The notes beneath the pieces are model-generated. The model was not told where the DNA came from. It made no database searches and saw only the letters and a program-made list of their open reading frames with translations. DNA of 64,000 nucleotides from Rhizaria sp. SCN 62-66 (taxonomy: Eukaryota): positions 1 to 64,000 of the forward strand of contig MEDY01000023.1 in the NCBI GenBank assembly GCA_001724265.1. The letters are read 5' to 3'. Shown here one piece after another: positions 420-49,500 of this stretch (within the stretch, counting starts at the first letter, position 1; the number at the start of each line of letters is the position of its first letter). The position numbers were made by a program, and so were the translations under genes.

Positions 420-493
420 GCTCTTGTGGCTCAGTTGGTAGTAGCGTGCGGCTGTTAACCGCAAGGTCGCTGGTTCGAGCCCAGCCAGGAGCG
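420..493 (+). tRNA. tRNA-Asn (anticodon GTT), intronless
   Basis: Cloverleaf: acceptor GCTCTTG/CAGGAGC; D-arm TGGCTCAGTTGGTAGTAGC; anticodon stem TGCGG/CCGCA around loop CTGTTAA; T-arm GCTGG-TTCGAGC-CCAGC; discriminator G; no encoded CCA. Confidence 0.95.
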
Positions 494-11299: not shown

Positions 11300-11951
11300 G
11301 TAACTTATTACACTGTACAAGTATGCCACTACGCTACGTCTTATTGATTGATACCGCCTGTCTCATAGATGATGTGTTGTGCAAACGTGTGGCTGTTTTT
11401 ATGCGATCTCTATGAGTGGGGCGCGTAGAAATTGATACCGCTGGCCTTGCTGGGGCCGTGGGCTTACAGTCACTGTTGCGATCAGAGACATCACGAGCGC
11501 CAGTACTCAAGGAGTTTCTTGTTTTGCGATTTTCTGTGTGTGATTGAATACATATGTGTTTATGAGTTCAGTTTTGGCTAGGTATAACATTCTTTCATAT
11601 CATATCGTAAAGGTAGCGGTGTGAAAAACGTTATATAGGTTCATGTATGTGATGTGCGAGTTTTTTTTGCATCTTGAAACATTAGCCACAGGATCGTTCA
11701 AATTTCTGACTCGAGCCTGCTTTGTTTTGATCGTCAAGAACAAATTTTAGACAAATTATAGATCTAACACTCGATTTTAACATTGATTTTCTTTTTATAT
11801 TTTCTCAAAGTGCTTTTTGTTCCGACTGTCAGAGAGTCTTCCGTTTCTATTCCTCCAGTCGTGATTTGCCCGACCAAACTCTCCACTCCCCGACGCGCAC
11901 TGCCTTTCTGTCGCTTTCTCGCGACACAGCGCCCGCGCGCGCGGCTTTGCA

Positions 11952-14900
11952 ATGAGCCAACGCAAGCACTCCTGGCGCGCGCGCCCCAGCGCCGCGGACC
12001 TGGCGGTGCTGGCGGCGGCCGCGGAGGCGCGCTTCATGGTCTCCCGCGAGCTGGGGCCCACGCGCTTTGAGCTGCGCCCTATCAACACGGCGGGCGCCTC
12101 GACGAATGCCAACAATGCACCGCTAAACAACGCCTCTTTATCTTTTAGCGATGCAAGTGCCGCTGCGATCAATGCTCAGCAGCAGCAACAGCAACACCAG
12201 CCACAACCTAAGCGTTTTGTTGTCTCTATTGGTGGAGACCTTACATGCTCTTGTCACAGCAACGCAGCAGCACCGAATTCGACAGCTCCGAGTAGTGGCT
12301 CTAATACCACCGCTAGCAGCAGCGCCGGCTCTAGCTCTCTATCATCTTCGTCATCATCTTCACAACAACAGCAACAGCAGCCACAGTCTCTGCTGTGCGT
12401 GCACGTCGTCTACGTGCTCACTCACCTGTTCCGCGTGCCCGCCGGCTCCCCGCTGCTGTGGCAGCTGAGCCTTGTGGACCGCGAGGTGGACGCAATGCTG
12501 CGGGACAGGGAGCGCCATGCGCGCGCGCAGGCACTCGCGCGCACACGCAACAACAATAGCAACAACAACAACAACGGCCGTGCGAGTGGGAACAGTTCAC
12601 ATGCTGCGAGTGCGGCTGCGACAGTCACAAATACTGAACAGTCTCAGTCAGCTGATGGCGGCGGCAACGGCGAGCAGCGGCCTAACTTCGACTCGGCGCG
12701 GCCTGACTTGGTGCAGCGGCGGCTCGACTTGTTGCCCAACGGGGTCACGATCAAGACGCTGCGGCCGCGCTGCCTGCCGCCCGCGCCCGCGCTGGTGCTG
12801 GTGCCCACGATTGCGGCCGCCAGGGCTTTGGGCGCCGCTCACGCGTACAATGCCGCCGCCTCTGCCGCCGCCGCTGCCGCCGCCGCTGCCGCCGCTGCTG
12901 CCGCCGCTGCCGCCGCTGCTGCTGGTGCGGACGCGAGTGCGAGCCCGGATGCAGGCGACGACGATGACGAACGTGAGCTTGAGCAACAGCAGCAATAGCA
13001 GCAACATCAGCAGCACGAGCAACAAGAGCGAGAGAAACAGAGGCAGCTGTATCTGCAACAGCAACAGCGGCGACAGCGACTGTTACGCGCCAGCAACAGC
13101 AACAATAACAGGTCTAGTAACAATTGGTCGACTCGGTCCGGGGGCGGCGCTCTCTCCGCTGTCGCTGCCGAGGCCGCCGCCGCCGCGCTGCCGGTGCTGC
13201 TGCCGCCGCCGCCGCCGCTGTCCGCGCCCCCGAGCGCGGCGTTGCTGCCGATCCCGATAACCGTGAGCACAGGCTACTGGGCTGACGAACTGCTGCTTAC
13301 GGTCACCCCGTTGCCGGCGCTGCCCACAGTCGCTGCGGCGCCTGCGCTCACGGTCACAGGCACGGCCACGGCTGCGGCGGCGAATGATGGCGGCGCCAGG
13401 GAGAGCGAGACGGTGCGCGTGCCAGTCACGGACTGCAACGTGCTCTGCCAGTGCGAGTGCGAGCGCGAGTGCGGGTGCCGACAGGGAAATCGAGCGCAGA
13501 GCAGGCTGGCGCTGCTTCAAGCGCAGTCGCAGCTGCTTTGGCGCACCGGATGGTCGCTCAGGGACCTGGACGCACATACGCAGCATCTCAAACGCGTTAG
13601 CAACGGGTTACAGTCACAAAAGGGGGCGAACAACACGATTACGCTTGAATTTCCAACAGCAGGCGCGCCAAGTGCTGCGGCAGCGCGTTCTTCTGTTACT
13701 GGCGCGATTGCCAACGCAAGGGTCGAGGTTGCCGCCCCGACTGCAGCCTCCGCCGTTGAGACGATCACAGGCGCGCTCCTCGAGCGTCTGCCGCCGCTGC
13801 CACCCTTTACTCCGCTTTGTGCTCCGGATAATAAGGACGCTGGCGGCGCCTCGACCGCAGAGTCGGCCGGTACCGAGGCTGACGCAGAGCCCGTGGAGAC
13901 GGAGGCCGAGAGTGTGGATTGCTGCATTTGCTACGAAGCAATGACTTACCAGGAAGAGGTACGCGTACCTAAACAACGTCGATGATCAGAATTTCAACTC
14001 GTTTTGTGCTTTTATCTTATTTTTTGGGTTATTTTATCAAATTTCTCACACTTTTACTTTTTCTTTGCTTTTTTCTTGCCTCTCTCGCGCATACTTCGCT
14101 GGCTTACACGCGGTCATACTCTCAGCTTGACGGCGCTCTCTATCCGTGTTGGTCCTCTTGCGGCAACTACTTCCACGCGCACTGCCTGCTCACCTGGGTG
14201 CGCCACAACACCAAGCCGCGCTCCACATACCCGCACAGCAACAGCAGCGGCAGCGGGAACGTGCGGGGCGCGGGAGTCACGTGTCCCCTGTGTCGCGCCG
14301 AGCTCGAGTGGGCCGTCGCGGAGGCACTCGCAGAGATGGGCCGCCGGACCGAGAAAATCCGGGCCGCGCGCGGGGACGCGGCTGCGCGTGCGCTGGCGCA
14401 GCGGCGGCGTGGGTTTTGGGCAGGTACTTACGCAAGTAAGGGGCTCAGCAGCAGCTGCGCCAACATTCGTGGAGATATGAAGGTGTATCAGCAGTATATG
14501 GCTGCGGCGGTCGCCAGGTATGCGCTGGGCGAGGCTGCGGGAAGGCTGCTGCGGGTGCAGACGAGGATTGCGAATTTGCAGTCACTGCAACAGAAGCAAC
14601 AGCAGCACCACCAGCCGCCGCAGTCATCACACGCGTTGTCGCCGTGGCAACAGAAGCGTCAGCAATAGCATGTGCTTCACTCGCTCTTGCAGCTGCAGCC
14701 GCGGCTGCAAGCGCAGCTAAAGCAACAGCAGCAGCGCCTGTTGTTGCAACTCAAGCACTTGCAGTCACAGTCTTCGCAGACGACGCTGCAAGCCGGTAGT
14801 TCGCTGTCTCCGAGTGGAGTCGTTGTGCTCGGCGCGCGCCGCGTACTCACGACGACTGTGGGCACCTACACGTTTCCGTTACAAGCAGCAGCGGCATTAG

Positions 14901-17900
14901 GCGAGCTGACACAAGAGCAAGAGCAAGAGCAAGAGCGTCTGTACGAGACTGGGCTCGGGTTAGTTTCCTGGCCGAGCGTAGCTTACTTGCGACCGCACAG
15001 CAAACAGCTTTCACTGGCACCGACAGCGCCCGAAACAAAAGAAAAGGCGAATGCCGTTGCAGCAAGAACACGCAAGTCCTCTCTGTTACTCGCGACCTCC
15101 AGCAACACGCGCAGTGGCAGTTCCGGTCTTAACCGTTCAACTGCAGCGACTTCACCGAGCTCTTCACAGTCGCAGTCTAAGTTGCAGTCTGAGGCGCTGT
15201 GGCGGCGGGGGCGGGGGCTAGGCTCTTTGCACGGCCGCTGCACCCTGTGCGGGGCCGGGGGGCCGCCGAAGCCCTTGCACGAGGTCGAAGGCAGCGCAAG
15301 TACAACTGATAACACCTCAACGCAGATAACCACAACAATATCTAGCAGCAGCTCTGGTCTGGGTTTAAGCACTATTGCGAACACACGGTCCATGTCTCAC
15401 GCTGTTGTCCCAGGCTCTATCTCTGGCTCCAGCGGCTCAAACCCAACTGCTTTGGTTGTCGGCTCGAACAATCACAGTCTATCTGGGAGCGTTGTTGGTG
15501 GCATCACAGGCTCGGGTGTTGGCAGTGGGAGCATCAGTCTTTTTGTGTCGCCAACAAGCAGCAACACGAACGCGCACGTCGGAAACATCTGTAACAACTT
15601 GGGTTTGTCATCACAGCAGCGGCAACAACGGTTGCAACGATAGCGGCTGCGGCAACCGCAACAGCAGCAACAACAGCCGCTAGCTTTAGAGAGCAGCACA
15701 TTCCTCACTGTCAGCTCACACATTAGCAGCAGCAGCGGCCTTACTGCGAGTGGCGCTAATCACGACACGAACTCCAGTGGTTCCCCTCCTGTTGCAGCTG
15801 CTCCTGCTGCCGTGCCGCTGGTGTCGTGCCTGCGGTGTGCATGGGTCTCACTGTGCCACCCTTGCGTCGCGATAGTACTCGATAGCAACAGCAAGGCTGA
15901 CAGTAGCTCAAGCACGGTTGATTCTGCGGCATGCAATGATGACGACAACGAGGCCTTTCCCCTAAAGGCTGCAGACGCGAACAGTCCCGCCCGCTTGCTC
16001 TCTCTTCTGTCCCCCTGCGCTCCGGTGTACTCGTCATCTTGCCTCAGTGACGGCGAGCAGGAAGGGACAAAGGCGCACGTGTGGGCCTACAGGCACGATA
16101 TGGAGCTTGAATCAACATCAATTCCTCAAAAAAGCCCTGAGGATAGTCTGAAACAGGTTAGTTTTAATGAGTCCCCAAGGAAAGCAGCGCTAGCATCTTT
16201 GTTTGCGTCAATGACAGCTTTTGTATCTCAGAACAATGACAACAAGCGCGATGCTGCAATCACAAAGCAACACAACAATAAGAGCGTGAATGTTCACTCT
16301 CGCTCTGTGTTGCACTAGCCCTTACAACCCCAATTGCCTTCACAGCTCCTGCGCCGCACCGCCGCCGGCCGCCGCGCCTTGCTTCTTGCGCTCAGGGCCG
16401 GACTTCACAGTGCGGGCCGTTCGCTGCACTCCCTGTGCGGCCTGCAGGGGCTGAGCACTCTCGCAGACCTAAGCACGACTGGTGACGGTGAGAGCGCCTC
16501 TGTGAGCGCGTTTAGCATGCTTGTGAGCCCAGGTCTTGTCACTCAACAACAGCAAGATATTAACTGCGACGGGAGCACAAAAAGCAGTGATTGTGAGCCG
16601 AATGACGTACATAACTCCGAATCAGATCTCGGAGCTGCTCTTGACCTTGGTTCTGATACTAACTCTGACTCAGACTGCACTCAGCAACAGAGCCAGCAGT
16701 CGCGGTTTGTCTTAAGCAAGCAGCGGCGCCAGCGGGAGCAGCAGGGGCCGCGGCGGGCGCAACAGCAGTCTCGGTCTGTGCAGCGGCAGCGGCGCGCACA
16801 AGAGCGGCGCAGGCGGCAGCGGCTGTGGCAACAGGGAGCTCGAATCGCGTTGCACTGGTCTGATGACGATCACACTGAAGACACAGCAACTTTGTGCAGC
16901 AAAACCGAAGGCGGTGAAAACAATGTTGAGTCAGCGTTGTTTCGCGAGCTTTCTGACGCTTCTCTTGTCCTCACGCTGCCGTTGCCGCGCGCTCTTTTCT
17001 CGTTATCTCTTGAACAAAGCAATTTCGCTATGCTCGAGCTCCAGCGCGCGGCAGGGCTGCTCTCTGTGGGACCGCGGGCGCTTGCCACGGCGGCGCTGAA
17101 GTCGCTGGCGCAAGGTCACTTGGAACAGAGTAGCGCGGTAGCCCACTCAGAACTACAGGAGGCTGCTCAAAGTCACACTGCTGATGACGCGTCTGACAAT
17201 ACATGCATATATAAGCGTAGCTGCGGTGGGAGCGAGTCCAAATACCTCCGTTTGTGGCGTGTCGCCCCCGCGCTGTCTCCGCTACTCACCCCATGGCTTG
17301 GCTCCCAAAGCTCTTAGTTGCAGTCGCCGTCACGGCTGCAATCGCAGTCTCATCTTATCCTGCGGGGACACCACGCCGACTCGACTGGTATCGGTAGTGG
17401 CGAGGTTACTAGCGAGAGCTTGGAGGGCAAAACTGCGGTTTGGGGAGGCTTTTGGCCCAAGAACGACAGCTCCTGGGATAAAGGCTCTGAGTTACTGCTA
17501 AAAACACACAATACTAATCTCGATGACGTACGTGCTCTTGACGCGTGTGTGTGTGGCTCTGACAGTGTTGGTGAGTGTAAATGCGAGTGTAAGAGTAGCC
17601 GTGAGCAGCAACGTGATTGTGACGGCGACTGGGGCGTTTCTACCACCGTCGCGCTTTGTGACAATCGTAATAGCAGCAACGATGACAACACGTCACAGCA
17701 GAAGCCTTTGCTGGTACTCACAGTGAGCATTCCGCTTGCACCCATTGCTGCTGCGCTTTGCACTGGCATTGATAGTATTGACGCGAATCTCAATGAAGAC
17801 AACAATGACGGTGATGCAGCGAGGGACAAGACGAACAACATGAATGATTCGGAAATTTGCGTTGATAATGAAACGTCGTCTGCTGCTGTACGAGCTATTG

Positions 17901-20900
17901 CGACAAGCCTCGGCAGCGCAGCACACCGCGTCACCCAGTCGTTGCTGCTCCTGGCGTCTCTGCTAAGGAGCGTTAACAGGCAAGACATCTCTTGCGACAA
18001 GGCGTTTGGCGAAGTTGGCACATTAGAGGCGAATCAAGGCAATACTGCTGGGCTGCAGTCTTTATCTTGTGTTGACGCGAGCGCGAACGCGGAGGTTGAC
18101 TCTAATGTTGGTACTGTAGCCAAAGCTGCTCACGACGCTGATTCTGATTCTGCATCTGTTGTTTTCACTACTTCTCAAACATTCGGAGCGGAAGCAACAG
18201 CAGCTTCAGTGCCAGCAACAATGCTCTCGAGCGACTCATGTTGCGCGTGCTGCGGTGGCAAAATCGACGCGTTGACCCGCACTCAGGCTGACGCTGACAC
18301 GGAGTCCGAGCCCAGTCGCCTCCATTGCCGCTTCCCGTGCGGCCACCGCGCGCACGTGGCCTGTGCTGCGCTTGCCGTGGTTACGAGCGGGGCCACACTG
18401 CGCTGTCCTCACCGGTCGCACCACTACCTGCTCCACAAAGACTCTCCTTACAACAGTCACAGCAAGCTGAGAAGCAGTGTCTCGAGCTTTAACGCGCTGC
18501 CGCTGACGTCACCGCTGTTGATCGCGCTTGCCTGTCTCGGCCCCGCCGCTGCGAAGACAGTGATTTCAGCACTGCGCTATCTTTTAGCGCCGCAGCGCCG
18601 CAAGGACGCAGTGAAAGCCGCCGCCGCAGCCGCCGCAAAGGCCATCCTGTACCTGCCCCACGCACCGCAGAACAACGACAGCGCCGCAAGTGACACTGCG
18701 AGCAGTGTAGTCACGGCTGCGGCGACTGCGGCCGCAGTCTCCGCTCTGGACCTGAGCCCCGCACTGCGCACGCGCCTTGCTGCCCTGGGCCCGGCGCTTG
18801 CTGCGCTGCTGCGCGCGCGCGCGGCGGCGACGGGCCTCGCCGAGCGCAGTTTCCTGCTCGCGCAGCCCTGGGTGTTTCCGGGGCTGGCGCTGCCGCCCGG
18901 CGCGCTGGCGCTGGCGGCGGCGCTGGCCGCGGCGCGGGGCGCGGGGGAAAGGGCCGCGGCAGCGTTGCAGCTGCGTGCGCTAGCTCCTGAGAATCAGCAG
19001 CAGCTACTGCGACAGAAACAGAAAGATGCTACAGGCACTGAGATGGTTGTATCTCTGACAGCTGTTGGTCACAGTAATGCGAACAGCAAGGCTCGTGTTG
19101 GCGGTAAGCTTATGCAGGGACGAGTTCAACAGCATCAACAACGACATGGGAAGTCACAGCCTCAAGATCAGCATTCTCCGACTGCTTCACTGTCGCTTTC
19201 ATCGACGCCTTTGCTAGGCGATAATGCAAGTAAACACAGTAAGATTCAGGAGTTGCAGACCCATTCATAGGCTAAAGTCAAGACAAGCCGTCACGGAAGT
19301 CACTCTGGTGCCTTGGATGCAAGTCCCTTTAGTGGTATACTTGACCTCACAGTGGGTGGGACGTCCACAACAGTAGTAGCAGCACCAGGGGCAGATACAT
19401 CAGCTGCAACTGCGGCTGTCAAAGCTGGTCGCTTGTCGAAGGGCCTTACAACCAAGGGCTTATCAAAGGGGATTGTAAACGAAACTACAGGTAATCTAAG
19501 CTCACTGGTTAGCACCGCACCATTAGCGACCAATCTAGCGGCTGTTGGCGTTGTCAGTGCAGCAAGCATGCTCACAGTCGCTCCGTCTGCCGTAATTTAT
19601 CCGAGCATCGACGCGATTATTGAAAACAACATCAACGTTGATAGTTATCATCGCCGCGCTGAAAACGAAACCGACACTGAGACTGAAGCTGCAACGCAAT
19701 ACTTACAGCAGCAACACGAGCAGCAACAGCAGCGACAGCAGCGGCTGCAGGAACAGCAGCAACAACAACACGCATTGCTAGAGCTGTCAAAAGCTGCGGT
19801 GACAGCATCTTTAGCAGAGGCGGAAACACCTCTCGTTATTACAGCTCGCAACATTGATACAAGTCAAAACAACGTTGACGCTGATGTTGATGCTGCTGCC
19901 TCTTCTGAACGGGCTGAACATGATCCTCTTCTGCTGTCTCGAGTGCTGGAAAGAGGATCGGAGAGTCAAACAGAGGGTGACTGCTGGGATGTGCACTCCT
20001 TGCTCCCATCGCGTTTACGCGACTTGTCTCGGCCGTCAACGGCGTTGCCAGCAGCATCAACAGCCGCAGTAGTGAGTGTGCGGGCTGATGTCGAGACTCT
20101 ACATGCTAATGATGCTGCTGACGCGGATCATATGAACGGAGATGACAATGACGCAGATGAAGATGGGGATGATGAGGACGGAAGCGATGAGATCGACGAG
20201 CTTGTGTCAGATTTCCTCTCATTTCAACACGATTTTTCTCTTGGCACGCTATCCTTTGACGCGGACTCTGCTGGCAGCAACGATAGTGATGGAATCAATG
20301 TTGACACCAACGTCTTTAACGCCATCACGACTGACGACGCGAAGAGCGACCCCAAATACCACGTTGGTCGTCTTTACGGGAGCATTGACGACGAGTGCGA
20401 GCTCGAACCAGTGTTTGAGCATGATCATGAGCGCGAGCGCGAGCGCGATGCCGAACACGGCGCCGAACAAGTTCACGAGCGAGAACCAGAGCTGGAGCCG
20501 GAGCCGATGCCAGAGCACGACCAGCAACAGCATGAGCAGGCGTCCGAGCCCCGTTCAGCGTTAGATCCAGAACGGGTTGAGACGGTGACTGTTGTAGCTG
20601 AAGCGGCAACAGAGATTGATGTTCACGCCGGGTTTGAGGCTGCGATTGCTTCTGGTGTCATTGGTGACGATGAGAACGATAATGTGCTTGTCAGCGCCGG
20701 TGCCCATGATATTGAGCATGAGAGCGATTGTGAGCTTGAGCTGTCGTTTGACGCACGCGCATTAGCAGAAGCGCTTACACAAAACAACCAGAGCAGCAGT
20801 ACCCGAGATGCAAATAATATCACAACGACCAATGACTCTAGCATCAGTACGATCAATAGTGTTTCCTTCAGCAGTTATGTTGATGATGCTCCTGCTAGTC

Positions 20901-21808
20901 TCCGAGCCACTAGTATTAGCAACACTGACCGAAATAGTCGCAACTCTAGTCAAAGTTACACTTCTTTTGCGAGCGCCAGTTCTATCGCGAGCCAGAACGT
21001 TCGCGGAGGCAAAGTTGCGAGGGGCCGGCCTGCTGGTCCTTCAGTTACCGCGACTGAGAGCGCTAGTTTTAGAGCTGCCCTATTCACGACTGTCACCCCA
21101 GGTATTGGCGCTATTTCTTGTGCCGCTGTGCCAGGAAAGCTTGCGACAATCAAGCGGGCTGAAAACAAGAGCGCTAGCGCGAATGCTACGGCTCCGAACA
21201 CCAACGATGGCGCAAGTCACATTCATAGTCACGGTTTCACTGCGGCGAGTGCTGCAATGACCGGCGTCAGTCTAACTGGCTCCGGAGTGACTAGCAGCAG
21301 GCATAGTGGCTCTAGTGCCGGCACTAACGCTGTCAACGGCTCAGGTGTGCGTCAGAGGGGCCGCGCTCCGCTGGGCTCTCTCAAAGGCGCGCCGCAACTT
21401 CAGGACTCGACTTCGTTGAGTTCACAGTTACAGTCACCGTCGCATTCACTGCCACATTTGCACTCGCAGCAACTGCAGCAGCAGCAGCAGCAGCAACACC
21501 AGCGTTTGCATTCACCTCTGCAACAGCAGCAGCAGCAGCGACAGCAACTGCAACAACAGCCACAACAACAACAGTCATTTCTCCAGTTTGAGTTACGTTC
21601 GCATTCACTTAGCTTGCAGCCAGGGCCAAACACTAGCACCGCTGTGCCCGCACAGTCGCAGCTGCCGTTACGGGGCTCACAGTCAGCTCCAGTGGACTCT
21701 CAATCACTCCTGCAGCTCCCTCCAGTCCGCGGCGTCAGCAGCAATGCAAGTAACAGCAGCAGCAACGTTAGCAGCAATTCTGGAAGCAGTCACAAATGGA
21801 GGAACTGA
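11952..21808 (+). CDS. ZSWIM2: ZSWIM2/MEX-like E3 ligase (SWIM-RING-ZZ-RING), ~3229 aa if six in-frame TAG codons are read as sense
   Basis: Exons 11952-13958 and 14126-21808; ends TGA. SWIM: RELGPTRFELR..FVVSIG..CSC..LCVHVVYVL..LLWQLSLVDREV. RING1: CCICYE|..CWSSCGNYFHAHCLLTW..CPLCR. Split ZZ-like: HGRCTLC ... CLRCAWVSLCHPC. RING2: CCACC..PCGHRAHVAC..RCP. The ORF-track pieces are in one frame per exon, separated only by TAG at 12996, 14666, 15641, 16316, 17315 and 19268. Confidence 0.85.
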
Positions 21809-28155: not shown

Positions 28156-35614
<7,459 letters not shown>

Positions 35615-36013: not shown

Positions 36014-38465
36014 TCACCACCAGCCTCCACTCGTCGGCGGCGTCGATGGCCCCGTAGTCCCGCCATTCGCGCTGTTGTTGTTGTTGTTGCTGCTCGCGCC
36101 GCCGTTGCTCGCCACGGTCTGCAACGCCAGCGGCCTCTGGTGTCCCGCGGGCAGCACCGGCGGCGCCGCGGCCCCAGCGCCAGCGCCGACGCCAGCGCCA
36201 GCGCCGATAGTCACCGTGCCGTACATAATGCTCACGCTGCTGCTGCTCTACATGCGGCCGCCGCTGCCGCCGAGGTTGCTGCTGCTGCGGTGGTGTGCAG
36301 CGCTGATGTTGCTGCTGCTGTGCGCAATGTTGCTGCCACTCTGCTGCATGGCGTGTTGATAGGTAGCTTCAACGCGCTCCGCCTTGGCGCGCAGCAAGTG
36401 CGCGCTGCGGCGCATCTGCTGGTACTTGGTGATCGTCTGCGGCAGTGAGTGGCTCTCTCCGCCCTCGCCGCCCTCTTTCGCCACGCCCAGCCGCGACTCG
36501 AGCGCCTCCAGGTTCCCGCCGTCCTCATTCGCACTGGCATTTGCACCGGCGTTTCCAGCTTGAGTGGCGACGTTGCCGCTGAAGCTCGGGTTCGCCCCGC
36601 CGCCGCCGCCGCCGTTGTTGCTCGTAAACGAGGCAACGCGGCGGCTGAGCTTGAGGTGCTCCTTGGCCATCGAGAGCAACTGGTCGGCCTCGGCCTCGGT
36701 CTGCTCGGCCTTGGCGACGAGTGCTGCAACCACCAGCGGCGGCGACAGCAGCTGCTGCAGCGCGCTGTGTTGCGCGAGCAGTGCCACAATCTCCCCTTCG
36801 CGCGCCGCGAACGCGCGCTCGGCCGCGGCCAGGCGGGCGGCGGCGGCGGCGAGCGCGACCTTGGCCTCGGAAGCGGCAGCGGCGAGGCGCTCGACGGACA
36901 GCGAGTGCGTCTCCACCACGGCGAGCGGGCGGGTGAGGAGCGGGTGCGACAGCGTCCAGGCCTGCACGCGCGCCTGCGAGTTGTCCATGGCGCGCAGCTC
37001 GTCCAGAGACTGGATATGTCGGGTTCGCGAAAAAAAAAAGAAAAAAGAAAAGCAGTCAAACGAAGCGGGAGTGGAAATGATAAAGTTAGATTTTGAAGAT
37101 ATATGAAGATTATCGATCCAATATCACTGTAAAATACGATTTAAATGTTGATATTTTGTTAAATAGCATCATGATCGACGACTGAGACTTTCATTCCGCA
37201 TGATGTGTGATGTTATGAAAAGTGAAACGCGACGTACCAGATTCGCGATTTCCTCATTGGCCAGCTTGAGCACGGGGGCAGAGGCAGGCGTGTCTTTGAA
37301 CACGTCGTCCTTCTCCTCGCTTGCGCCGGCACCCGCGCCGCCGTCCTCTTTGCTGCCGCTCGCAGTGATAGCTGCGGCGTTCTCGGGGTACGAGGGCCGG
37401 CGGTCCCTTAGATTCGGCGGCGGGGCACTTAGGTTCGACGACCCCCCTCCATACTGCTGCTGCTGTTGCAGCTGCGAGTTGAGGGGCGGCGGAGGGCGCT
37501 GAGGCGGCATCGCATTCCCGCCGCTCGCCTGCTGCCACTGCTGGTACTGCGGATACTGCGGCTGCTGCGGCTGGTATTGTTGATACGGCCGCGGCTGATA
37601 CGGGGCCCCCGCGGGCGCGGGCGGCGGCGCGCGCGGGTACAGCGAGATTGAACCCGAGCTTGCACTCGCACCTAATCCTCCAGCACCCGCTCCAGCGCCA
37701 GCGCCAGTGTTCATATTGTTCATATTAGCGTTTGCGCTAGCACCACTGCTGCCTGCGGTAAAGCTTCGACTGCCGCCCGCGCCGCCGCCAGCGCCGTAGC
37801 CTGGCGCGCCGTAGCCCGGAGCATTTGGGTTGTTGAGAGAGGCGTTCGCGGCCTGCGCGACGGACATCGGCACGGGGGGGTCGAGCGGGAGTGCGCGGGT
37901 GATGCCCTGGACGACAGAGAGCACGGACTCGCCCTGGGGAGTCCAGTTGGCGATGGCGGGGCAGCGGGAGAGGAAGCCTGCGGGGTCGATCCAGGGGTGC
38001 AAGACAGGGTTCGAGATCTGGGGAGTTGACAAGAGACCAGATGGAAAAATGCAATGTGCAGAAAACAGTGAGAATTGACACACGATGGGTTGAGAGCAAA
38101 GATAAAGAACAAGTGAGCGATTTCAAAAAGATAACAAGTCACAGTTTATACGATTGACATTGTTTGAAGCCCTCATGTAGTTATCTAGACTTGCAAGACA
38201 ACCTGAAACGCATGATGAAGGGAGAGTTGCTGTTTAGTTCGATTGAGCGACGTACGCGGCACGTGAAGGGCGTGGTGGGGAAGTCGGGCGGGACCGTCGT
38301 GGTCATGCGGAGCGAACCGTACGCGGTGGATATCTGCACGTCGAAGGAGTTGCCGTCGGCGGCCCAGGTGGCGGCGGGGAGCCCTCGCTTGAGGGTTTCA
38401 AGCTCGGTGCGCCGCCGCTGCTCCTCAGGGGTCTCCTTTTTCTTGCTCCGGCCGAAGAAAAACAT
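36014..38465 (-). CDS. VPS37: ESCRT-I subunit VPS37 (VPS37A-like: UEV-like N-terminus + Mod(r) domain), 3 exons, one in-frame TAG
   Basis: Exons 38465-38256, 38017-37238, 37009-36014. Motifs VPPDFPTTP, VLHPWID, NWTPQGESVLSVVQ; Mod(r) AEQTEAEADQL..KYQQMRRSAHLLRAKAE. TAG at 36250-36248 is followed by 77 more coding-like codons to TGA at 36016-36014. Confidence 0.78.
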
Positions 38466-38925
38466 CGGGCTGCAGGGAGAAAGCAAGCTTAGCCTGCTAA
38501 ACTAGAAAGCTGTTTACGTTGCCTTGTGGCGGTTAGATGCTAGCGCGCAAGAGAGGAGCGCGGTGATGCGGTGGGGAAAGTGTGGTGACTGTGCAGATTG
38601 AGTGAGCACGAGGCGAAACGAGAACAGCTACTAGACAAGCAAGGTGATCTCAATGAAAGATTTAATTCAATGATCAGTACCAAATAAGACATGATGTTAC
38701 GAAAATACAGCCTGCAGTCTAGTTAACGGTCACACTGGGTCAATATCTATGCTTTTCAGACGGACAACAACAACCTCTCTCTCACTCGCTCGGATCGCGT
38801 CGCCCCAATTCTTCGAAGTCGATTCGTGGTGAACTAAACATTTTTCTGTATTCCTCCTCCAAACCACATCGAGATGAAACAAAAGTTGTTAAAATAGATA
38901 CCAAACAGCCATATAAGATTCATAC

Positions 38926-41232
38926 TTACTTCTTGTTGACGGTGAACGCGATGTTATCGTAGTCCTTGTCCTTGCAATGCTCGCGCGTGATGGTCGCCAG
39001 CTCGCTGCCGTGCTCGACCCCCGTGGCCGCGCCCGCCGTCGCGCCGCGCTGCGCGAGCGCCGCCAGCGCGACCTCGACGGGCTGCGCGGCCCTCGCTGCG
39101 GCCGCCGCGGCCGCCTTGGCTGCCTCGGGGTCGCGCATGCCCTCCGGCCGCGCCTTGGGGGCAGTGCGCACGTCCGCCGCCGCGCGCGCCCCTTCGTCGC
39201 GCACGAAGCCATTCCGGCCCTCGTAGTCGGCGGCCAGATCGAAGTCCTGGGCCGTGAGCGCGTCCCAGACCCAGGCGGGTAGCCGGTGGTCGGCGAAGTT
39301 GAGCGCAAGGTTCTCGCGCACGAAGGCCTCGAACCGGCCGGCGAGGAGCGACTCGCGCATCAGCTTCATGTAGTGCGCCATGTAGCCCATGTTGTGGATC
39401 GACAACAGGTGGCACCCGAGCGGCTGCTTGCCCGCGATGTGGTGCAGGTACGACCGGGGGTACTTCCACTTGCTACACACGTCACAGAGGCACGTCTCGC
39501 ACAGAACGCGGTGGTCCTCGGCGAACTTGGTGCTCGACAGCTTCAGCAGCCCGTCGGGCACGATCGCGGTGCCGAAGCGCGCCGTTCGGCACGGCCACAC
39601 GCAGTCGAACATGTCGACGCCCATCGCCACGCAGACGAGCAGGTCGACCGGGTACCCGACGCCCATGAGGTAGCGCGGCTTGTCAGAGGGCAGGTGCGTT
39701 GCGCACAGGTCGACAACACGCCAGAACTCCTCTTTGTCCTCGCCACCGGCCAGACCGCCAATCGCATAGCCTATCGGTGGGATAAAAAATAGATAAGGAG
39801 ATTTGACAAGGTATATGAGGGATTTGCCAAAAAATAAGTTTAGATGTAAGATTATTAGCACTGCTAGACATTGCGTTTTGTTAAAGAGTTTCTTCAAGTG
39901 AGACGTACCCGGGAGGTCGCGCTTGATCATCTCCTCGAGGCAGCGGCGGCGCAGTGGGGCCTGGAGGCCGCCCTGGATGATGCCGAACAGATTCTGCACG
40001 TCGGGCTTCTTGTGCGCCGCGATGCACCGGTCAAGCCACCGGATAGAGCGCTCCATCGCCTCCTCCACACGGGGGCCGACTACAGTGAGTGCGAGTCAAA
40101 AGCAAGCGAGCAAGCGAGATGATTGAATTATGTGAGACTTAAGAGCATAGACAAACGACTATAGAGCTGAAACAAGAAAAATGGTTAGATTGTCGTGAAT
40201 TCCACACAAATATTATAAAAAAATCATTGAAAAGATGAGATAAATATGAAATATCTGCGTACCGGTCATGGAGTGGCAGACGTCATCGAGCGCCATGAGG
40301 ATGTCCGCGCCGATCTCATTCTGGTACTGCACGGAGCGCTCGGGCGTGAGCAGCAACATCGACCCGTCGACGGGGGACTTGAACTTGACGCCCTGTTCGT
40401 TGATCTCGGCCAGCTCGACCAGCGACACCATCTGGAAGCCTCCGGAGTCGGTCAGTAGGTTCTTGTCCCAGTTCATGAAGGCGTGCAGCCCACCCTTGCG
40501 GTGCACGACGTCCGTCCCGGGGCGCACGCCGAGATGGTACGTGTTGCCGAGGATGATGTTGATGTCCGGGATCGCCTCCACCTGCTTCGCGCACACGCCC
40601 TTGATTGCGCCCTGTGTCCCCACGGGCATGAACACCGGGGTCTGCACAGTCCCATGCGGCAGCTCGAGCGTGCCCGCACGCGCCTTGCCGTGCTTCGCGC
40701 GCTCCGTAAACCGCAGCGCCGGGGACCGCGCCGAGAAGGGCTTGAAGGCCGCCAGACTCGCGAAGTGCGAGCTCGGGTTGGCGACCTCTGACCGGGCGAC
40801 CCCCCACTCCTCGGGCGCGTAGGGCTAGAGATGGATCGCCGTACGCGACGCCGCGCTCACCACCGCAGGAGCAGCGACAGCACCGTCGGTCGCCGTAGCA
40901 GCGGCAGTGGCGTTGGCGGGGGCCGTGGTGGAGCGGTTTTTGGACGGCCGCACGACTGCAGCGGCCGCATTCGCGCTTGCACTGGTATTCGCGCCAGCGT
41001 TAGAGTTCACAGTGGCGATGCTGGGGGAGGCGGCGCCGGGGCTGCGGCTGCGACTGCGAGCGCGGGGGGCCACGCTGGCGGTGTGGTTGTTACTCGTGTC
41101 GGCGTCACTCATGGCGATAGCGTTGTTGTTGCTGTTATCGGCTTGCTTGGAGCGCTTGGCGACGTGGTTGACCGCGGGGGATCCAGTGTTAGAGCTAGCA
41201 GAGGCGTTGGCGCTAGAACTCGAATCAGACAT
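38926..41232 (-). CDS. QTRT1: Queuine tRNA-ribosyltransferase catalytic subunit (TGT), 3 exons, one in-frame TAG
   Basis: Exons 41232-40263, 40079-39909, 39770-38926; ends TAA. Motifs [97 protein letters not shown] at 40827-40825 lies between the available ATGs and the catalytic domain. Confidence 0.92.
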
Positions 41233-42644
41233 GATTTGCGCGTTGAAGCTGCTGTAGTAGTGGCTGTCGTACTGCACTCGCGTCGATGAACCACTGTTGG
41301 AGTTGTCCTCTGCGTCGTCTGCAAACGAGTCGGAGCTAGAACTGGCTGCTTTGAGGTTCTGAGCGTGAGAACTCTTGGGCTTGGTGTTGGTGTTGCTGTA
41401 CGGCGACGGGGGGCGCGGGCGCGGACGAAGCAACGGCTTTACCGAGGGCAAACTGACGCCAGAGACAGAGACGGCAGGGTTGCTGTGAGCGGGACTGTTG
41501 ACGACACTGCTGCTGCTGCTGCTGCTGGTGCGGCGGCGACTGCTGCGGTGGGAGTGGCGCGGGTGCAGGGCGGTGGAGGCGACACTGGTGACAACCGAGA
41601 GCGGGGCCAGGGACGCAAACACAGAGCTGCTGTAGACGCGACGACTAGTGTTAGTGCGAGTGTTCGAGCCAGAGCTAGAGCTGGAGCTGGAGCTAGAGCT
41701 AGGGCAGTTGTGGGTGCTAACGAGCGCAGGCGCGGGGACGACAAAGGTCTTGGCTGCGACTGTGTACGCGCGCGCTGCTGCTACAACTGCTGCCGCTGAT
41801 GTAGTGGTTGTTGTTGAAGCGTGGGGTGTCGCGGTTGCGGAGAATGAGGCAAGGCGACGGGCTGCGGCGGCGAGAATGGTGCCCGGGAGCGAGGAACGCG
41901 GACGCGGCACGGGGAGTGTACGGCGAACGCGCGGGAAAAAAGGGGGCACAGCGCAACAAGACGTGCGGTGTGCGGAGGGAGAGAACTGGTGAAGCGAGCG
42001 GGCCGGAGGGAGGAGAAAGAAGCGAGGATGAGCAAAGGGATGGGGGGAGATTTTCAAGGGCTTCGGAAGAGGCCAAGCGCGTCTTGTTTAGCAAAATGAA
42101 TAGTAGACCACGGCACAAAACTCACGGGATAGACGATATACCGCTGATAAATGCACTGGTTATCGACTCATACGGCACCCAGAGACGCTCCCCGTCGGCA
42201 CTTCGCACCGCCCTTTGTTTGTGGTCACCGTATGCCATTTTTGGGAACCAGCCCAAGCGAGATCGCCGCGCCGCGACGGCACAACACGAGTGACCACAAC
42301 TGGGGTAGCGTGGATTCCGCGAGGTCATGTTGAAGGAAAGCGATCGTCATTCATTGTAGAACTTGATGTGCAGATAGAAATATTGCTTGTGAAAATGTTA
42401 TATAAATTCTATTCCAGAGAGAAGCTGTTTACCCCTGTGCCGACCCGTTCCCGTTCATGACTCGACTCACCCTTTGCCTCATCTTCTCGCCCCGCTTTCC
42501 GCCCATGCTGCGCCCCACAGTCCGCTTCTTTCCACTCTGCAACTTGATAACGCAACAACTGCGCGTGTTTTACTCAAACTAACTACACCAGCACTCCGCT
42601 CCAGCACACCCTACGCGCGCCTACCGCACTGAAAGCTCAGCAAC

Positions 42645-43766
42645 ATGTCTTGGCGCGGTGCCCAGCGCGTTGACCCAAACAAGGTCGTGCCGATCATCTC
42701 CCACAACGACGACGACGCCACGGTCGCGCCCATCCTGCTCCAGGAGACGCGCTCGCACGAGGTCCGTCCGCCCGTGCTGTACCCGGCTCGCAGGCTCACC
42801 CGTCTCGACCTCCCCTCGGCAGACCTCAAGGTACGTCAAATCAAGCAAGCTCGAACCTTAAGCTAATATTTCTCGCTTGTATCGACACATCGAAGCTTCT
42901 ATCTCCACTATAAAACTAATAACAATTTGTTCTATTATTGACATTGTTCTTATTGTTTAAATCCCACATATACGCACTCTAAACCACTTTTTATGCAACT
43001 TGTTTTCTTTCCCGACTTGCCTTCTGCCTGCCTACAGTCTGTCGAGTACGCCAAGCGTCTGCTTGACCGTTTCTCATACAGCGGCTTTCACCAGGACTAC
43101 GCCACTATCTCCATCACTTCTGGCGCCTCCTCCTCGTCCTCCGCGACTTCCTTTACGACCAACAAGGCCTCCTCGGCTGGCTCCGCGGCCGCGCTGCGCA
43201 AGTACTCGGACAAGTTCCGCGTCATGATGGGCGTGCGCACGGTCGCCGACGAGGTCGACCCGTCGTCGCTGCACCTCTTCCCGGCCGAGCTGCGCCGCTT
43301 CCTCACCTCGCGCAAGCGAACGGCCGAGGTGATGCTTGGCGTCGCCTCCGCGGCCTCGGCGCCCGTATCGCTGTCGACGATCTCGAGCACGATCCGCGAG
43401 CTGGGCACCAACAAGCGCATGCGGCTCGACTCGCTCATCTCCATGCTCGACGGCTCAGTCAGCTCCATTGCAGGCTCGGCCGCGCGAGAGCGCGAGCGCG
43501 AGCGTGCTGCTGCGGCGGCGGCGGCCGCGGCGGCGGGCGGCGGCGACGGCAAGGACGGGACCAAGAAGGAGGGTGACGGCGGGACCGCGGGCGCCGGGGA
43601 GGACGAGGACGACGAGGGCGGCGACGGAGACGACGACGACGATGAGGAGTTCGACTACGACGACGACAACAGCGACGACGACGATTATACGGCACGCTAC
43701 CACGACGACGACGAAGACGGCGCCAACGCGTTTGGCGACGACGACAACGACGAGGGCGCGTTCTGA
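42645..43766 (+). CDS. POLR3G: RNA polymerase III subunit RPC7/Rpc31, 2 exons
   Basis: Exons 42645-42830 and 43038-43766. Motifs PPVLYP, RKYSDKF, LFPAEL; acidic tail with DDYTARYHDDDE; ends TGA. Confidence 0.75.
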
Positions 43767-44638: not shown

Positions 44639-45175
44639 ATGGACAAGTCCGACCGCGGTCCCGTCCCGGGCGACAAGCCTTCCAAGGGTGGCGACTGTGC
44701 CCCGCGTAACACCCCCTCCCCGCGCTCTGCAGATCAGCACAGCCCTCATCCTTCGCTGTCACTCGTGTTGCCGCATCACGCGACGCTCGACTCTGTTTCC
44801 GCGTCGGCGACGTCGCCCCTCGTGAACGACATCGAGTACATGCAGAGCGACGCTTCCCCCACTCCCAACCCCGGTCCCGGTCCCAGCAACGCGCGCGCCG
44901 CGGGCGGCACCAACCCCGCGGCGGCGCTTGAGGCGGCCGAGGACGAGGACGAGCCCGCGAGCGAGGCTGACGCCGTTGCCACGAGCCGCAGCAAGCGCGT
45001 GTCCCTCTCCAATCATGTCAGTCTCGGTGGGCACGCCAACCACCCCGGCCACCACGGCGACCAGGACGAGGCTAGCGGGCGCAGCAACTTGACGCCGAGC
45101 GTCGCTCTCCACACCAGCGCGCAGCAGCCACGCGCCAGCGGCCCCAGCCTGCCCAGCAGCAGCAGCACCAACAAA

Positions 45176-45262
<87 letters not shown>

Positions 45263-46520
45263 GCAGCAGCAACAGTTGCTCGAATCTCGAGGCGTCGTCC
45301 TCATCGTTCCTGCCGCAGCCGCATCCACAGCTCCCTGAGCCGTTGCCGCGCCCCCCCGTCGTGCACTCGTCCTCGGCACAATCCCTATCGACGCTGTCAG
45401 CCTCCAGCACGTCAACACCGACAAGCGTCAGCCAGGGCTTCTCCCCGTTCAGCCCGCCCGCGGCGTCGGCGTCGGTGTCGAACCTCGCGGCGGTCACGCT
45501 CGCGGAGACAGTGTCCTCTCTCACCGTTGACACAGCAGATGTAGCAACAGATGCACCAGCAGAGGTTGTGATATCACCGTCAGCAACAGCTGCAGCGGCA
45601 GCAACAGGGCAGAACAGCAGTAGAAACGACACTGAGAGTGTTCGCACTGCCAGTCCAAGCCCTGGCGCATCACACCCACACACAGTAAGCACAACCACTC
45701 GCACTGCCTCTGGCGCTGCTGGGGGCGCTGCTGAGGGTGCTCCGAAGGTTAGCGGACTGAAGCCCCGCGCGAGCCGGAGCCCAATGAACATCCACAACAC
45801 TGGTGCGGGGAATGAATCGACTGACGAGCTCACAATGCAGTTCAACACGGCCAACTTCGACGCCCTCACCGCTTTCCGCACGTTACACGTCCCCGGGGCC
45901 AGCGGCCTGAACGCGAGCAGCAGCGCGAATCCCAGCGCGATGGACGACAGCAGCAACGCCAACAGCTTCAACATCAACACCGAGGCCAGCTCGACGACTG
46001 ACGCGCAAGCGCAGCTTCGGCAGCTGCAGGAGCAGCCTGAGGCGCCGGAGCAAGATGAGGACGACTCAGAACCAGCCCAGGTCGATAGTCAACATCACCA
46101 TAGGCGGCAGCAGCAACAGCAGCATCGACAACAGCAGGAATCCCACACGACTCGCGGCGACTGCACCGCCACCACCAACCCTTTCGCCGCCACCGCCGCC
46201 GGAGGGACTGGGACCGGGACTGGGACCGGTGCTGAAGGCGACGCTGCTGCTGGCGGCCCTGCTGGTCACCACCCGTACGGCCCCGCCGGCACTGCGTCGT
46301 CGCTGCTGGCGATAAGCGCCCTCACCGCGCCCAGCTACGGCGGCGCGACTTTCGGCGCTGGCTACGGTCCTGATGCGGCGGCCGCTGGCGACGGCTACGA
46401 GCCGCGGCTGGGGCAGCACGGTCACGGGCCGATCCCCCCCTCTGCGACCGCGCCGGGGACCGCGGCCGGGGGCGCTACTATGGGTGAGGCGGGGGTTTCA
46501 ATGCCTGCGATGGGTTTCGC

Positions 46521-46556
<36 letters not shown>

Positions 46557-49500
46557 CCGGCAGCAGCAGCGCGCCTATAGCACTCTGCAGCGCGAAGTGA
46601 ACCGACAGTTCGACCGCCCTTTCACCAACACGGCGCTGTCACTGGAGGAGTACCGTGCGCTGCTCAAGTCCAAGCACAACTCGCTCGACTTCTTCCCGAC
46701 CTACAACAGTCTGCAGTACAAAGCCGCCGTGGCCGAAACGCCCTCGGACGTCAAGTGGCGCCGATGCTGCCACTGGACCCTGACCGCTCTCGTCGGCATC
46801 GTCGTGGGGTTGTACTGTTTCGTTATCATCTACATCACGCGCCGCACCAACGGCTCCAAGTTCGGCTACACCGCCGCGCTGCTGGCCGACGGCAACACTG
46901 CGGCGTCGTGGGCGCTCTTTTCCTTCTGGAACACGGGCTTCCTCCTCGTTTGCGCGTTCCTGATCAACTACATCATCCCTTCGGCCGCCAGCGGTATCCC
47001 CGACATTAAGGCCTACCTCAACGGCACAAACGTGCCCGGCAGCTTCACGCTCACGGCGCTCGGCGGCAAGGTTATCGCAACGTACCTCTGCGTCTCGGCC
47101 TCGATGCCTATCGGCGCCCAGGGCCCGCTCACACACACCGGCGCCCTCATCGGGTACGTATTCTATACACTTTTACAAATAACAATTATTTCATCAAATA
47201 TCTGCCTTTTTTTTTAAACTCACGCGTACACAATGTTGCTTTTTGTTTTTGTTTCTTGCCTCATCAGCGGTTGGCTTGCGCACCATTACCAGAGCGCGCT
47301 GAAGCGCATGTTCTGCTGCGCGAACGCGCGCGACGAGATGCGCGACATCGAGGACCGGCCCTCGTTCCCCTCGCACCACCCGCCGCCGCCCGCCCCGGGT
47401 GGGCCGGCCGCAGCGGCAGCAGCAACAGCAGCAACAGCAGCTGCCGCGGCGGGCGCGGCGGGGGCACGGCGGCCGGTGTTGATGGGACAGCAGAGTCTGC
47501 AGCAGCAACAGAGCCCGCAGCCGCAGCAGCAGCGCGCACAGGCCGGCAGCACGGTCAGCCCCGGCGTCGACAGCGCGTCCGCCTTCCCCGTGCCCGTCTC
47601 ACAGTCCCGCCTCGGCGATGGCAACAGCGGCGGCGGCAAGAGCGGTGCGGGGTCGAACCTGGGGCCCATCGGCGCCAACGTCGCCGTGATGGACGGCTCA
47701 GGCTTCTCCCCCGAGGCACCAGGCCACGCGTACGTCTTTGGACAGCCCATGCAGACCTTCGACGCAGACGACGCGGACACGGGCAGCGGCAGCGGCGGCG
47801 GCAGCGGGCGTGGTCTAGCTTCGGACACGGCAGCCATCCCCTCGGCCGCCGCGGCGGGCGGCCCCGGCGCCGGTGTTGGTCCCATGCCAGTGTCACCGGT
47901 TCCCGAAGAGACAGGCTCCAACCTCTCCACAAATAGCACCGCGACCGCCTCCGCCAGCACTGGCGCTGGCGCTGGCGCTGCTGCTGGCTCTACTGTAAAG
48001 GCTGTGACCAAGAGTAGCACGTTAACACACTCGCCTAACCTCTCCAGCATGCTGCCCCCCGGCTCCGGCCCCGGCGCTGGCGCTGGCACTGGCGTGATGG
48101 TGACGGGCTCGTCGTCGTCGGTCGCGCAGGTCTCGGCCGCCGTGGCCGCCGCGCGCGCCGCCGCCCGGGCTCGTGCGCGCAAGCAGGGTCGCCAGCTCAC
48201 TGAGCAGGAGCTGGAGCTAGAGCTCATGCCTCTCACGTCCACCCTCGCCAGTACGCTTGCGAACAACAGCAACAAAAACAACAAGAACATCAACCAGAGC
48301 GTCGCTGGCGCTGGCGCTGGCTCCGCTGTGGTTGCTGGCGCGCCCCTGGGCACGTTCGTCGCCGGCTCAAGCGCCGCCATCGCGGGCCCCTCTTCCGCCG
48401 CGGTCGGCAACGTCGGGTTTGCGACTGGCAACTCGAACATCGCCGCCGTCGCCGCCGCCAACGCCGCCGCGCTCCAGCTCCAGGCACAGCAGCAGAAGCA
48501 GCACCTACTGCAGCAGCAACAGCAGCAGCGGTATGGTGATGACGCCGACATCGACGAAGACGACGACGACGACTTCCGCGGCGGCGGCGGAGCCAACAAC
48601 TCCAACAAGACCTCCCGGTTCAAGACGAAGCGCGGCAGCGCGACGGGCGGCGTCGTCATCTTTACGCGCACGAACTCAGGCCCCCGCCGCACTCGCGCGG
48701 GCTCGGTGACGCAGCTCATCGACCTGGACTCGGAGAACGCCAACGCGCAGTCGCAGGCGATGCGCGCGGACCCGGAGTCGGCGATCGACAACGGCGTGGG
48801 GCAGCGCTGGGGCATTGGCCACGCGCGCGCCGCGGCCGCACTCGCGTACGGCAACGCGGACGGCGCGGCGGCCGCGACGGGGGAGATCGTTGCACGGTTT
48901 GACGAACTCGGCCGGCCGGAGGCGGCGCCGGCGATGATGACGCCCAGCATCAACATCAACGACATCGAGAACATCCACCTCAACCTTAATCTCAACACGC
49001 TGGATGCCAACAACAGCGGCGGCGGCGGCAGCGGCGATGTCGGTGTGTCCACAAGCAACAGCCATGATGCCCGTATTGACGCACTGAGTCCCGGACTCGT
49101 CCCCATGCACGGTCATGCCCACGGTCACCACCGCGCCCACGGTCACTCTGCCCACGGTCACCACGTGCGGTTCGAAGGCGAGGCTGTCGACGACGACGGG
49201 TATTCGCTGTCGTTCGTGGACGAAGAGAGAGACTACACTAACAGCCACGGCCACAGCGGCAGCGGCAGCGGCGGGGACTATACCAGTGAGAGCGACTACG
49301 ACGACGACGGCCACCACCGTCATCATCACGGTCACGGCCACGGTCACCGTGCTCACGGTCACTCTGCTTACGGTCACGGCTCCGGCCCGCAGAGTCTGGC
49401 CCGCAGCCAGAGCGGCCCCAGCGACTGCAGCCACTCGTGCTCTGACGGCGGCGATTGCGGTAGCCGCTGCGGCTCCGAGTGCGACACCGACACGGACGGA

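Follow-up and report, generated by a model that had tools for sequence, protein, structure and literature searches.

An in-frame TAG in the QTRT1 gene of a wastewater eukaryote, probably read as a sense codon

We describe a gene for QTRT1, the catalytic subunit of the eukaryotic tRNA-modifying enzyme queuine tRNA-ribosyltransferase (tRNA-guanine transglycosylase or TGT family), in a contig assigned to Rhizaria sp. SCN 62-66 (MEDY01000023.1, assembly GCA_001724265.1), and in particular a TAG triplet which stands in frame ahead of its catalytic domain. The stretch analysed, hereafter the window, comprises positions 1 to 64,000 of the forward strand of that contig. It is eukaryotic nuclear DNA, in which G+C-rich exons are separated by AT-rich GT..AG introns. 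The QTRT1 gene occupies the minus strand from about 42200 to 38926; its features, together with those of a RING-finger gene which bears on the same question, are collected in Table 1.

Both coding parts of the gene match the Pfam TGT family (PF01702, cut-off 26.3 bits), the frame of exon 1 with 189.3 bits (E 1.4e-55) and that of exons 2-3 with 253.4 bits (E 4.5e-75). Among solved structures, the best matches were to QTRT1 chains (E 3.5e-56 for exon 1 and 7.2e-48 for exon 3); bacterial TGT was matched at 3.4e-45 and 4.9e-39, and the accessory subunit QTRT2 at 7.7e-12. Judged by these sequence comparisons, the gene is nearer to the eukaryotic catalytic subunit QTRT1 than to bacterial TGT, and far nearer than to QTRT2. 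The translations contain the motifs LTDSGGFQ, GVGYPVD and C-x-C-x-x-C...H, which occupy invariant columns in two alignments (A1 and A2); this, with the domain scores above, agrees with a preliminary description of the locus in which the catalytic and zinc-binding motifs were said to be intact. By analogy with bacterial TGT, the aspartates of the first two motifs would be catalytic and the third would bind zinc. The predicted protein has the TGT domain and zinc motif in common with the human and mouse QTRT1 structures (7nq4, 6h42 and 7b2i), and adds to those chains an N-terminal extension of approximately 170 residues and a C-terminal extension of approximately 100.

The minus strand reads ATC CAT CTC TAG CCC TAC GCG CCC GAG, within I H L * P Y A P E E W, and the TAG occupies 40827-40825, 36 codons upstream of the conserved QTRT1 domain. 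Counted from the ATG at 41232, it is codon 136. Between 42087 and the intron that begins at 40262, the QTRT1 frame has no other stop, and the spliced coding sequence from ATG 41232 (1986 nt) is stopped only here and by the TAA at codon 662. In-frame ATGs are found at 41232, at 41112 (codon 41) and then at 40629, within VFMPVG; between the TAG and 40629 there is just one out-of-frame ATG, at 40655. The human QTRT1 structure, from its residue 18, aligns starting at the 36th codon past the TAG. Given this alignment and the absence of in-frame ATGs from the TAG to VFMPVG, the standard code would leave the catalytic domain without a start. The TAG upstream of the catalytic domain, the first methionine past it inside VFMPVG and an upstream ATG at 41232 had all been noted in the preliminary description and are confirmed by the sequence, while a second upstream ATG, there placed at 41113, is one base off and lies at 41112. 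The upstream region had further been called G+C-rich and coding-like, and it is both: G+C content over 41232-40828 is approximately 66%, the introns being AT-rich by contrast, and proteins of relatives align there. Besides the low-complexity extension at the N-terminus and a conserved block, exon 1 holds the start of the TGT domain, with its first 152 codons, from 40719 onwards.

Table 1. Position, strand and basis of the features discussed in the text.
Feature	Position	Strand	Basis
In-frame TAG, codon 136 of QTRT1, probably a sense codon	40825..40827	-	sequence; A, S or D in the same column in relatives
QTRT1 exon 1, modelled from the first in-frame ATG	40263..41232	-	3' end set by cDNA joint 40079/40263
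Conserved block of the clade-specific N-terminal extension, S-R-T-A-I-H-L ... F-K-P-F-S-A-R-S-P, including the TAG	40720..40848	-	alignment and BLASTP
Second in-frame ATG, codon 41, alternative start	41110..41112	-	sequence
Intron 1, 183 nt, GT..AG, AT-rich	40080..40262	-	spliced X3 contig, joint 40079/40263
QTRT1 exon 2	39909..40079	-	sequence and cDNA joints
Intron 2, 138 nt, GT..AG, AT-rich	39771..39908	-	spliced X3 contig, joint 39769/39908 with the cut at +1
QTRT1 exon 3, with zinc motif C-x-C-x-x-C...H and C-terminal extension	38926..39770	-	ends in TAA 38928-38926
Transcribed 5' leader, minimum extent	41233..42199	-	X1 records 4-7; X2 records 12, 13 and 15
RING-finger gene with six in-frame TAGs (12996, 14666, 15641, 16316, 17315, 19268)	11865..21808	+	independent witness for TAG as sense

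Related proteins carry the argument that this triplet is translated. A protein search listed the best 120 of 8000 scored candidates, and our statements on relatives refer to these. The closest among them are P0001 (84% identity, 5'-partial), P0004 (80%), P0002 (78%, 566 aa), P0003 (78%), P0005 (69%) and P0006 (57%). Seven relatives in six 90% clusters, namely P0001-P0006 and P0121, a cluster member of P0004, carry the N-terminal extension. In alignment A1, of nine sequences, the conserved block starts 5' of the TAG, with S129 and A132, both upstream of it, invariant in 9/9. Where the window has S-R-T-A-I-H-L-[TAG]-P-Y-A-P-E-E-W-G, P0001 has S-R-T-A-I-H-L-A-P-Y-T-P-E-E-W-G and P0002 has S-T-T-A-S-H-L-S-N-F-S-A-E-E-F, and the residues directly 5' of the TAG are thus identical to those of P0001 in 7/7 positions. 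A BLASTP query made of the 72 residues preceding the canonical domain, with X at the TAG, aligned without gaps over the X to both P0001 (27/46 identities, E 2e-16) and P0002 (20/43, E 1e-10). In the TAG column, one of the seven relatives has A, five have S and one has D, all of them sense residues, and the four relatives which begin with M start 70-150 residues upstream of it. Such ungapped conservation over the TAG column means that the codons just before the TAG are coding and belong to the same polypeptide as those after it; a single polypeptide on both sides, in turn, excludes a splice acceptor, a separate upstream open reading frame (ORF) and a downstream start as the main product. The P0001 protein runs unbroken over both intron positions and therefore shows how this region reads without introns.

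The conserved part of the extension is common only to a small clade of relatives among the matches listed. Named QTRT1 matches among the best 120 of 8000, which come from fish, insects, moss, green algae, an oomycete and Balamuthia, all lie at 54-65% identity and afford no placement of the organism. When the 72-residue block of the extension was searched against 1.84 billion representatives, a single match came back, to a KRAB zinc-finger protein at E 6e-4, which is spurious. A scan of metagenome contigs for the DNA of the relatives reached at most 57% identity among the best 80 of 402 confirmed loci, and the DNA of P0001-P0006 was not found there; the loci inspected or judged by identity are distant Tgt genes, L073 being bacterial. 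An AlphaFold2 model of P0001, built on 30 aligned sequences, is confident for the barrel; the extension block has a pLDDT of only 55-66, from which no structural role can be read. At the other end of the gene, the terminal TAA overlaps a GTAAGT resembling a splice donor (AAGAA/GTAAGT, 38926-38945), and an extra 3' exon may exist; P0001 ends at a similar place.

Eight sequencing runs were found, six of which held part of the stretch, and four of these (X1, X2, X3 and X6) were examined. X1 and X3 are one sample, X2 is a polyA run, and X6 comes from the same study as X2, which is another than that of X1 and X3. In X3, one contig is spliced across each QTRT1 intron (joints in Table 1), with GT..AG ends on the strand of the gene, and X1 and X3 each hold one contig from which the intron of the neighbouring gene has been removed (42828 to 43036). 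Although these three other introns gave joints, no splice joint was reported at 40825 in the contigs of X1, X2, X3 and X6. Genome-collinear contigs reach the vicinity of the TAG in X1 (record 3, 40556-40830) and X3 (record 20, 40809-41042); in both, as in X6 (40654-43033), the TAG is unchanged, with no other letter at 40825-40827. Further upstream, the gene is covered by X1 records 4-7 (40841-41976) and by polyA run X2 (40933-41151, 41340-41757 and 41925-42199), so the TAG stands in transcribed sequence. Cover is lacking at bins 42264-42424 in X1, X2 and X3, and over 39688-40170 in X1. The RNA data support an unspliced TAG, without proving it. That the triplet is real follows from its presence in three assemblies from two studies, the strain of X6 differing from the window in seven other letters over 2.4 kb.

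The variant strain seen in X6 and X2 (38400-43200) carries scattered substitutions and, in intron 1, lacks 3 letters at 40127; it keeps the TAG. Over 41340-41757 it shows a 12-letter length difference in a serine-rich stretch with repeated three-base units.

An independent witness is provided by the RING-finger gene on the plus strand. Its frame from 13973 to 21808 runs for 2611 codons with five TAGs and neither TAA nor TGA, and under the standard code would fall into six abutting ORFs. The sixth TAG lies in an upstream exon (11865-13985), within CAA CAG CAG CAA TAG CAG CAA; as the RING finger is interrupted by an AT-rich intron near 13985-14130, we count this exon as part of the gene. The gene exceeds 3300 codons, is very rich in low-complexity tracts and has no Pfam match, and no homologues were found for a 557-residue fragment around the TAG at 16316.

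Stops that stand alone in the window, with at least 200 open codons to either side, number eight TAGs, one TAA and one TGA. Of the eight TAGs, seven belong to coding strands and one probably to an antisense frame; the TAA sits in a GTACGT..CAG intron and the TGA on the strand opposite a chloride-channel exon. Among 3862 confident codons, we counted 85 CAA, 162 CAG and 7 TAG. The four gene ends which could be judged use TGA, TAA, TGA and TAA, and none uses TAG, though they are few and the ORFs were delimited by TAA and TGA by construction. In the window, TAG, and only TAG, acts as a rare sense codon; the QTRT1 triplet is one of seven such codons in two genes, within a protein conserved on both sides of it. 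The proposal of the preliminary description that the TAG is read as sense from an upstream ATG is upheld by the conservation across the codon and by the six in-frame TAGs of the RING-finger gene.

The amino acid is suggested by context. One TAG lies within a pure CAA/CAG tract, two more lie in Q-rich text, and TAG and CAG differ by one transition. The tract and the Q-rich surroundings favour glutamine over leucine, as evidence of context and not of conserved columns in the window. Glutamine is also the commonest known meaning of a reassigned UAG (PMC5304391; PMC11687900). Provided that TAG is sense, UAG is rather likely to be decoded as glutamine.

In our model, which infers what amino acid is inserted, where translation starts and how tRNA and eRF1 act, the mRNA would begin upstream of 42199. 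The likeliest site of initiation would be AUG 41232, which is the next AUG past a 3-codon mini-ORF, with AUG 41112 as the alternative. A serine/alanine/asparagine-rich extension of 135 codons would be translated, the UAG would then be decoded as an amino acid, and translation would go on via a conserved block of 45 residues into the catalytic TGT barrel, yielding a protein of approximately 661 residues. UAG would have been reassigned genome-wide from stop to sense, probably to glutamine via a tRNA with anticodon CUA, and UAA and UGA would stay terminators.

The 5' leader has a bearing on where translation may begin. From 42199 to 41233 it contains one ATG in 967 nt against 7.9 expected, and as few occurred in 0.2% of 2000 shuffles. 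This sole ATG belongs to the 3-codon mini-ORF at 42171, and the leader is free of ATG in all frames from 42170 to 41233. An ATG-poor leader of this kind fits scanning to AUG 41232. A basic patch shared with relatives sits upstream of 41112 and, as a sequence feature, weakly favours AUG 41232 over AUG 41112. This patch is short, K/R-rich and similar to a nuclear localisation signal, and occurs in the N-terminal extensions of P0002, P0004 and P0006 and at codons 25-30 of the QTRT1 gene of the window. The N-termini of P0121 and P0007 are arginine-rich and presequence-like in appearance.

The QTRT1 frame is open for 285 codons upstream of 41232, which could represent a long leader free of upstream AUGs, a non-AUG start or a missed 5' exon. 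An ATG at 42238 (AAAATGG), combined with a 43-nt intron GTGAGT..AAG (42125-42083), would splice in frame into the open leader. This intron is unsupported, the polyA contig X2 record 15 (41925-42199) being unspliced there.

We estimate the probability that the QTRT1 TAG is a translated codon, as a consequence of a genome-wide reassignment of TAG to sense with TAA and TGA kept as stops, at about 0.82. Several observations weigh against this assessment. The evidence for TAG as sense consists of seven TAGs in two genes of one window, and just four gene ends were judged for terminator use. A tRNA with anticodon CUA was not found in the 64-kb window, in which ARAGORN and Rfam detected tRNA-Asn (GTT), at 420-493 (+), as the only RNA gene. 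Nor does the window contain a gene for eRF1. The QTRT1 column is A, S or D in relatives and never Q, and this codon gives no vote for glutamine. No RNA contig has at least 31 letters on each side of the TAG, X3 record 20 having 16 downstream and X1 record 3 having 3 upstream; the only true bridge is X6 record 28 (40654-43033), and X6, which keeps the intron of the neighbouring gene and intergenic DNA, behaves like DNA. The run classification labels X1 and X3 'probably DNA', though their spliced joints mean that these libraries contain spliced cDNA despite the label. Lastly, an RNA fold of -51.8 kcal/mol (40725-40827) begins 8 nt past the QTRT1 TAG (z -2.03, 7/200 shuffles as stable) and is like readthrough stimulators.

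This fold lends itself to an account in which UAG is still a stop, and QTRT1 and the RING-finger gene are made by leaky or programmed readthrough with a near-cognate tRNA; the rarity of TAG, with 7 codons against 247 CAA and CAG in 3862, points the same way. However, the 2611-codon frame would need five readthroughs in a row, with a sixth in the upstream exon, which is implausible, and an essential catalytic domain would hang on an inefficient event. The bases after the QTRT1 TAG (CCC UAC) are also unlike the readthrough contexts CARYYA and CUAG. Gene-specific programmed readthrough would involve a single regulated site with a stimulatory context or downstream structure, whereas the window has seven sites, spread over two genes, and no common fold follows the other six TAGs (z 0.38, -2.85, -1.29, 0.91, -0.81 and 0.70). 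We therefore consider readthrough unlikely. A different use of the stop, in which the TAG ends an upstream ORF of 135 codons and the enzyme starts downstream at a near-cognate codon or by reinitiation, could draw, for instance, on an in-frame CTG at 40755. This CTG has a good context (A at -3, G at +4) and precedes the conserved ALRF by 12 codons, and a start at it would give an N-terminus of canonical length. Two AUGs in good context precede this CUG, however, and a start there would drop the conserved block, although in the relatives the protein is conserved right up to the TAG column and runs on past it without a break, with sense residues at the column and AUG starts far upstream. As the TAG is plainly internal in the RING-finger gene as well, we judge a downstream start to be decidedly improbable.

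Splicing was weighed similarly. In-frame TAGs at 34251, 51327, 61282 and 62898 resemble intron acceptors, and a pyrimidine-rich run precedes the QTRT1 TAG, which might accordingly be the 3' end of an intron (...ctctag/CCC). The preliminary description thought this unlikely, and rightly so on present evidence: the 21 nt before the TAG encode SRTAIHL, identical in the intron-free P0001 protein and aligned without gaps to relatives; the upstream G+C content of 66% is at odds with the AT-rich introns; and the cDNA contigs which splice three true introns show no joint at the TAG, the latter being absence of evidence only. We hold the chance of an acceptor here to be very slight. A 20-nt mini-intron, GTACGG..TAG, was likewise rejected, as it leads into a frame with a TGA just upstream and X3 record 20 is contiguous there. 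Gene decay, with the TAG arising from recent nonsense mutation or from misassembly, has only the stop itself in its favour. Against it, the same TAG recurs in three assemblies and two studies, one of them with the divergent strain of X6, and the remainder of the gene is intact and spliced, with all TGT motifs present, which makes gene decay or misassembly highly improbable.

Elsewhere in the window, a chloride-channel (CLC) gene with a CBS domain (44971-54945, +) contains AT-rich introns, very long low-complexity inserts and an open frame of 1333 codons. Its intron at 47154-47268 (GTACGT..CAG) is in frame save for one TAA.

Reassignment of UAG alone to glutamine is the pattern of NCBI translation table 15. 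It is known from Iotanema spirale (PMC5304391) and from the ciliates Hartmannula sinica and Trochilia petrani (PMC11687900), and the window is like these in that TAG occurs inside coding sequence while TAA, and here TGA too, still ends genes. TAG is also a minor codon in both settings, making up approximately 8% of glutamine codons in I. spirale (PMC5304391) and, if it encodes glutamine, approximately 3% in the window. Unlike these three organisms, the window has approximately 59% G+C, AT-rich introns of 115-207 nt, GTACG donors and proteins rich in low complexity, and its glutamine is our inference. In Amoeboaphelidium protococcarum, TAG and TAA are both reported to stand for glutamine (PMC5304391; PMC6299283), and this organism resembles the source of the window as a non-ciliate, intron-bearing eukaryote with TAG as sense. 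It differs in that the window gives no sign of TAA as sense, the lone TAA between long open frames being intronic, and in that Amoeboaphelidium genomes have approximately 40% G+C (PMC10608142) against approximately 59%. To judge by the accession numbers printed there, these genomes seem to carry annotation in NCBI; the named QTRT1 matches among those listed for the window stay at 54-65% identity. Leucine is the meaning of UAG in uncultivated phyllopharyngean ciliates and in the rhizarian exLh (PMC5304391; PMC11687900), whose codes, like that of the window, change UAG only and retain UAA as a stop; unlike in those codes, TAG here occurs in a pure CAA/CAG tract and twice more in Q-rich text.

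No fitting description of the code of the window was found in the literature searched, subscription journals being outside its reach. We tentatively suggest that the window may come from a lineage so far undescribed as a code variant, G+C-rich, intron-bearing, non-ciliate and at home in wastewater or activated sludge, in which UAG alone would have become an amino acid, probably glutamine. If true, the rare reassignment of UAG alone would have arisen independently once more, outside ciliates and fornicates, and the cleanest proof from a single gene would be the QTRT1 codon, since the protein is conserved from one side of it to the other. A new lineage would, moreover, offer a G+C-rich genome in which to study the co-evolution of tRNA(CUA) and eRF1. 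Codes in which UAG and UAA differ in meaning are few and have been called 'particularly interesting and rare' (PMC11687900), because the release factor must still recognise UAA while giving up UAG.

The phenomenon itself is a known one, and the value of the present case is that of a clean variant-code marker in a housekeeping enzyme of a wastewater eukaryote. Gene callers using the standard code would truncate QTRT1 or miss its start, and would split the RING-finger gene into many fragments. For the annotation of wastewater metagenomes and metatranscriptomes, this would mean that some eukaryotic bins need a code similar to table 15.

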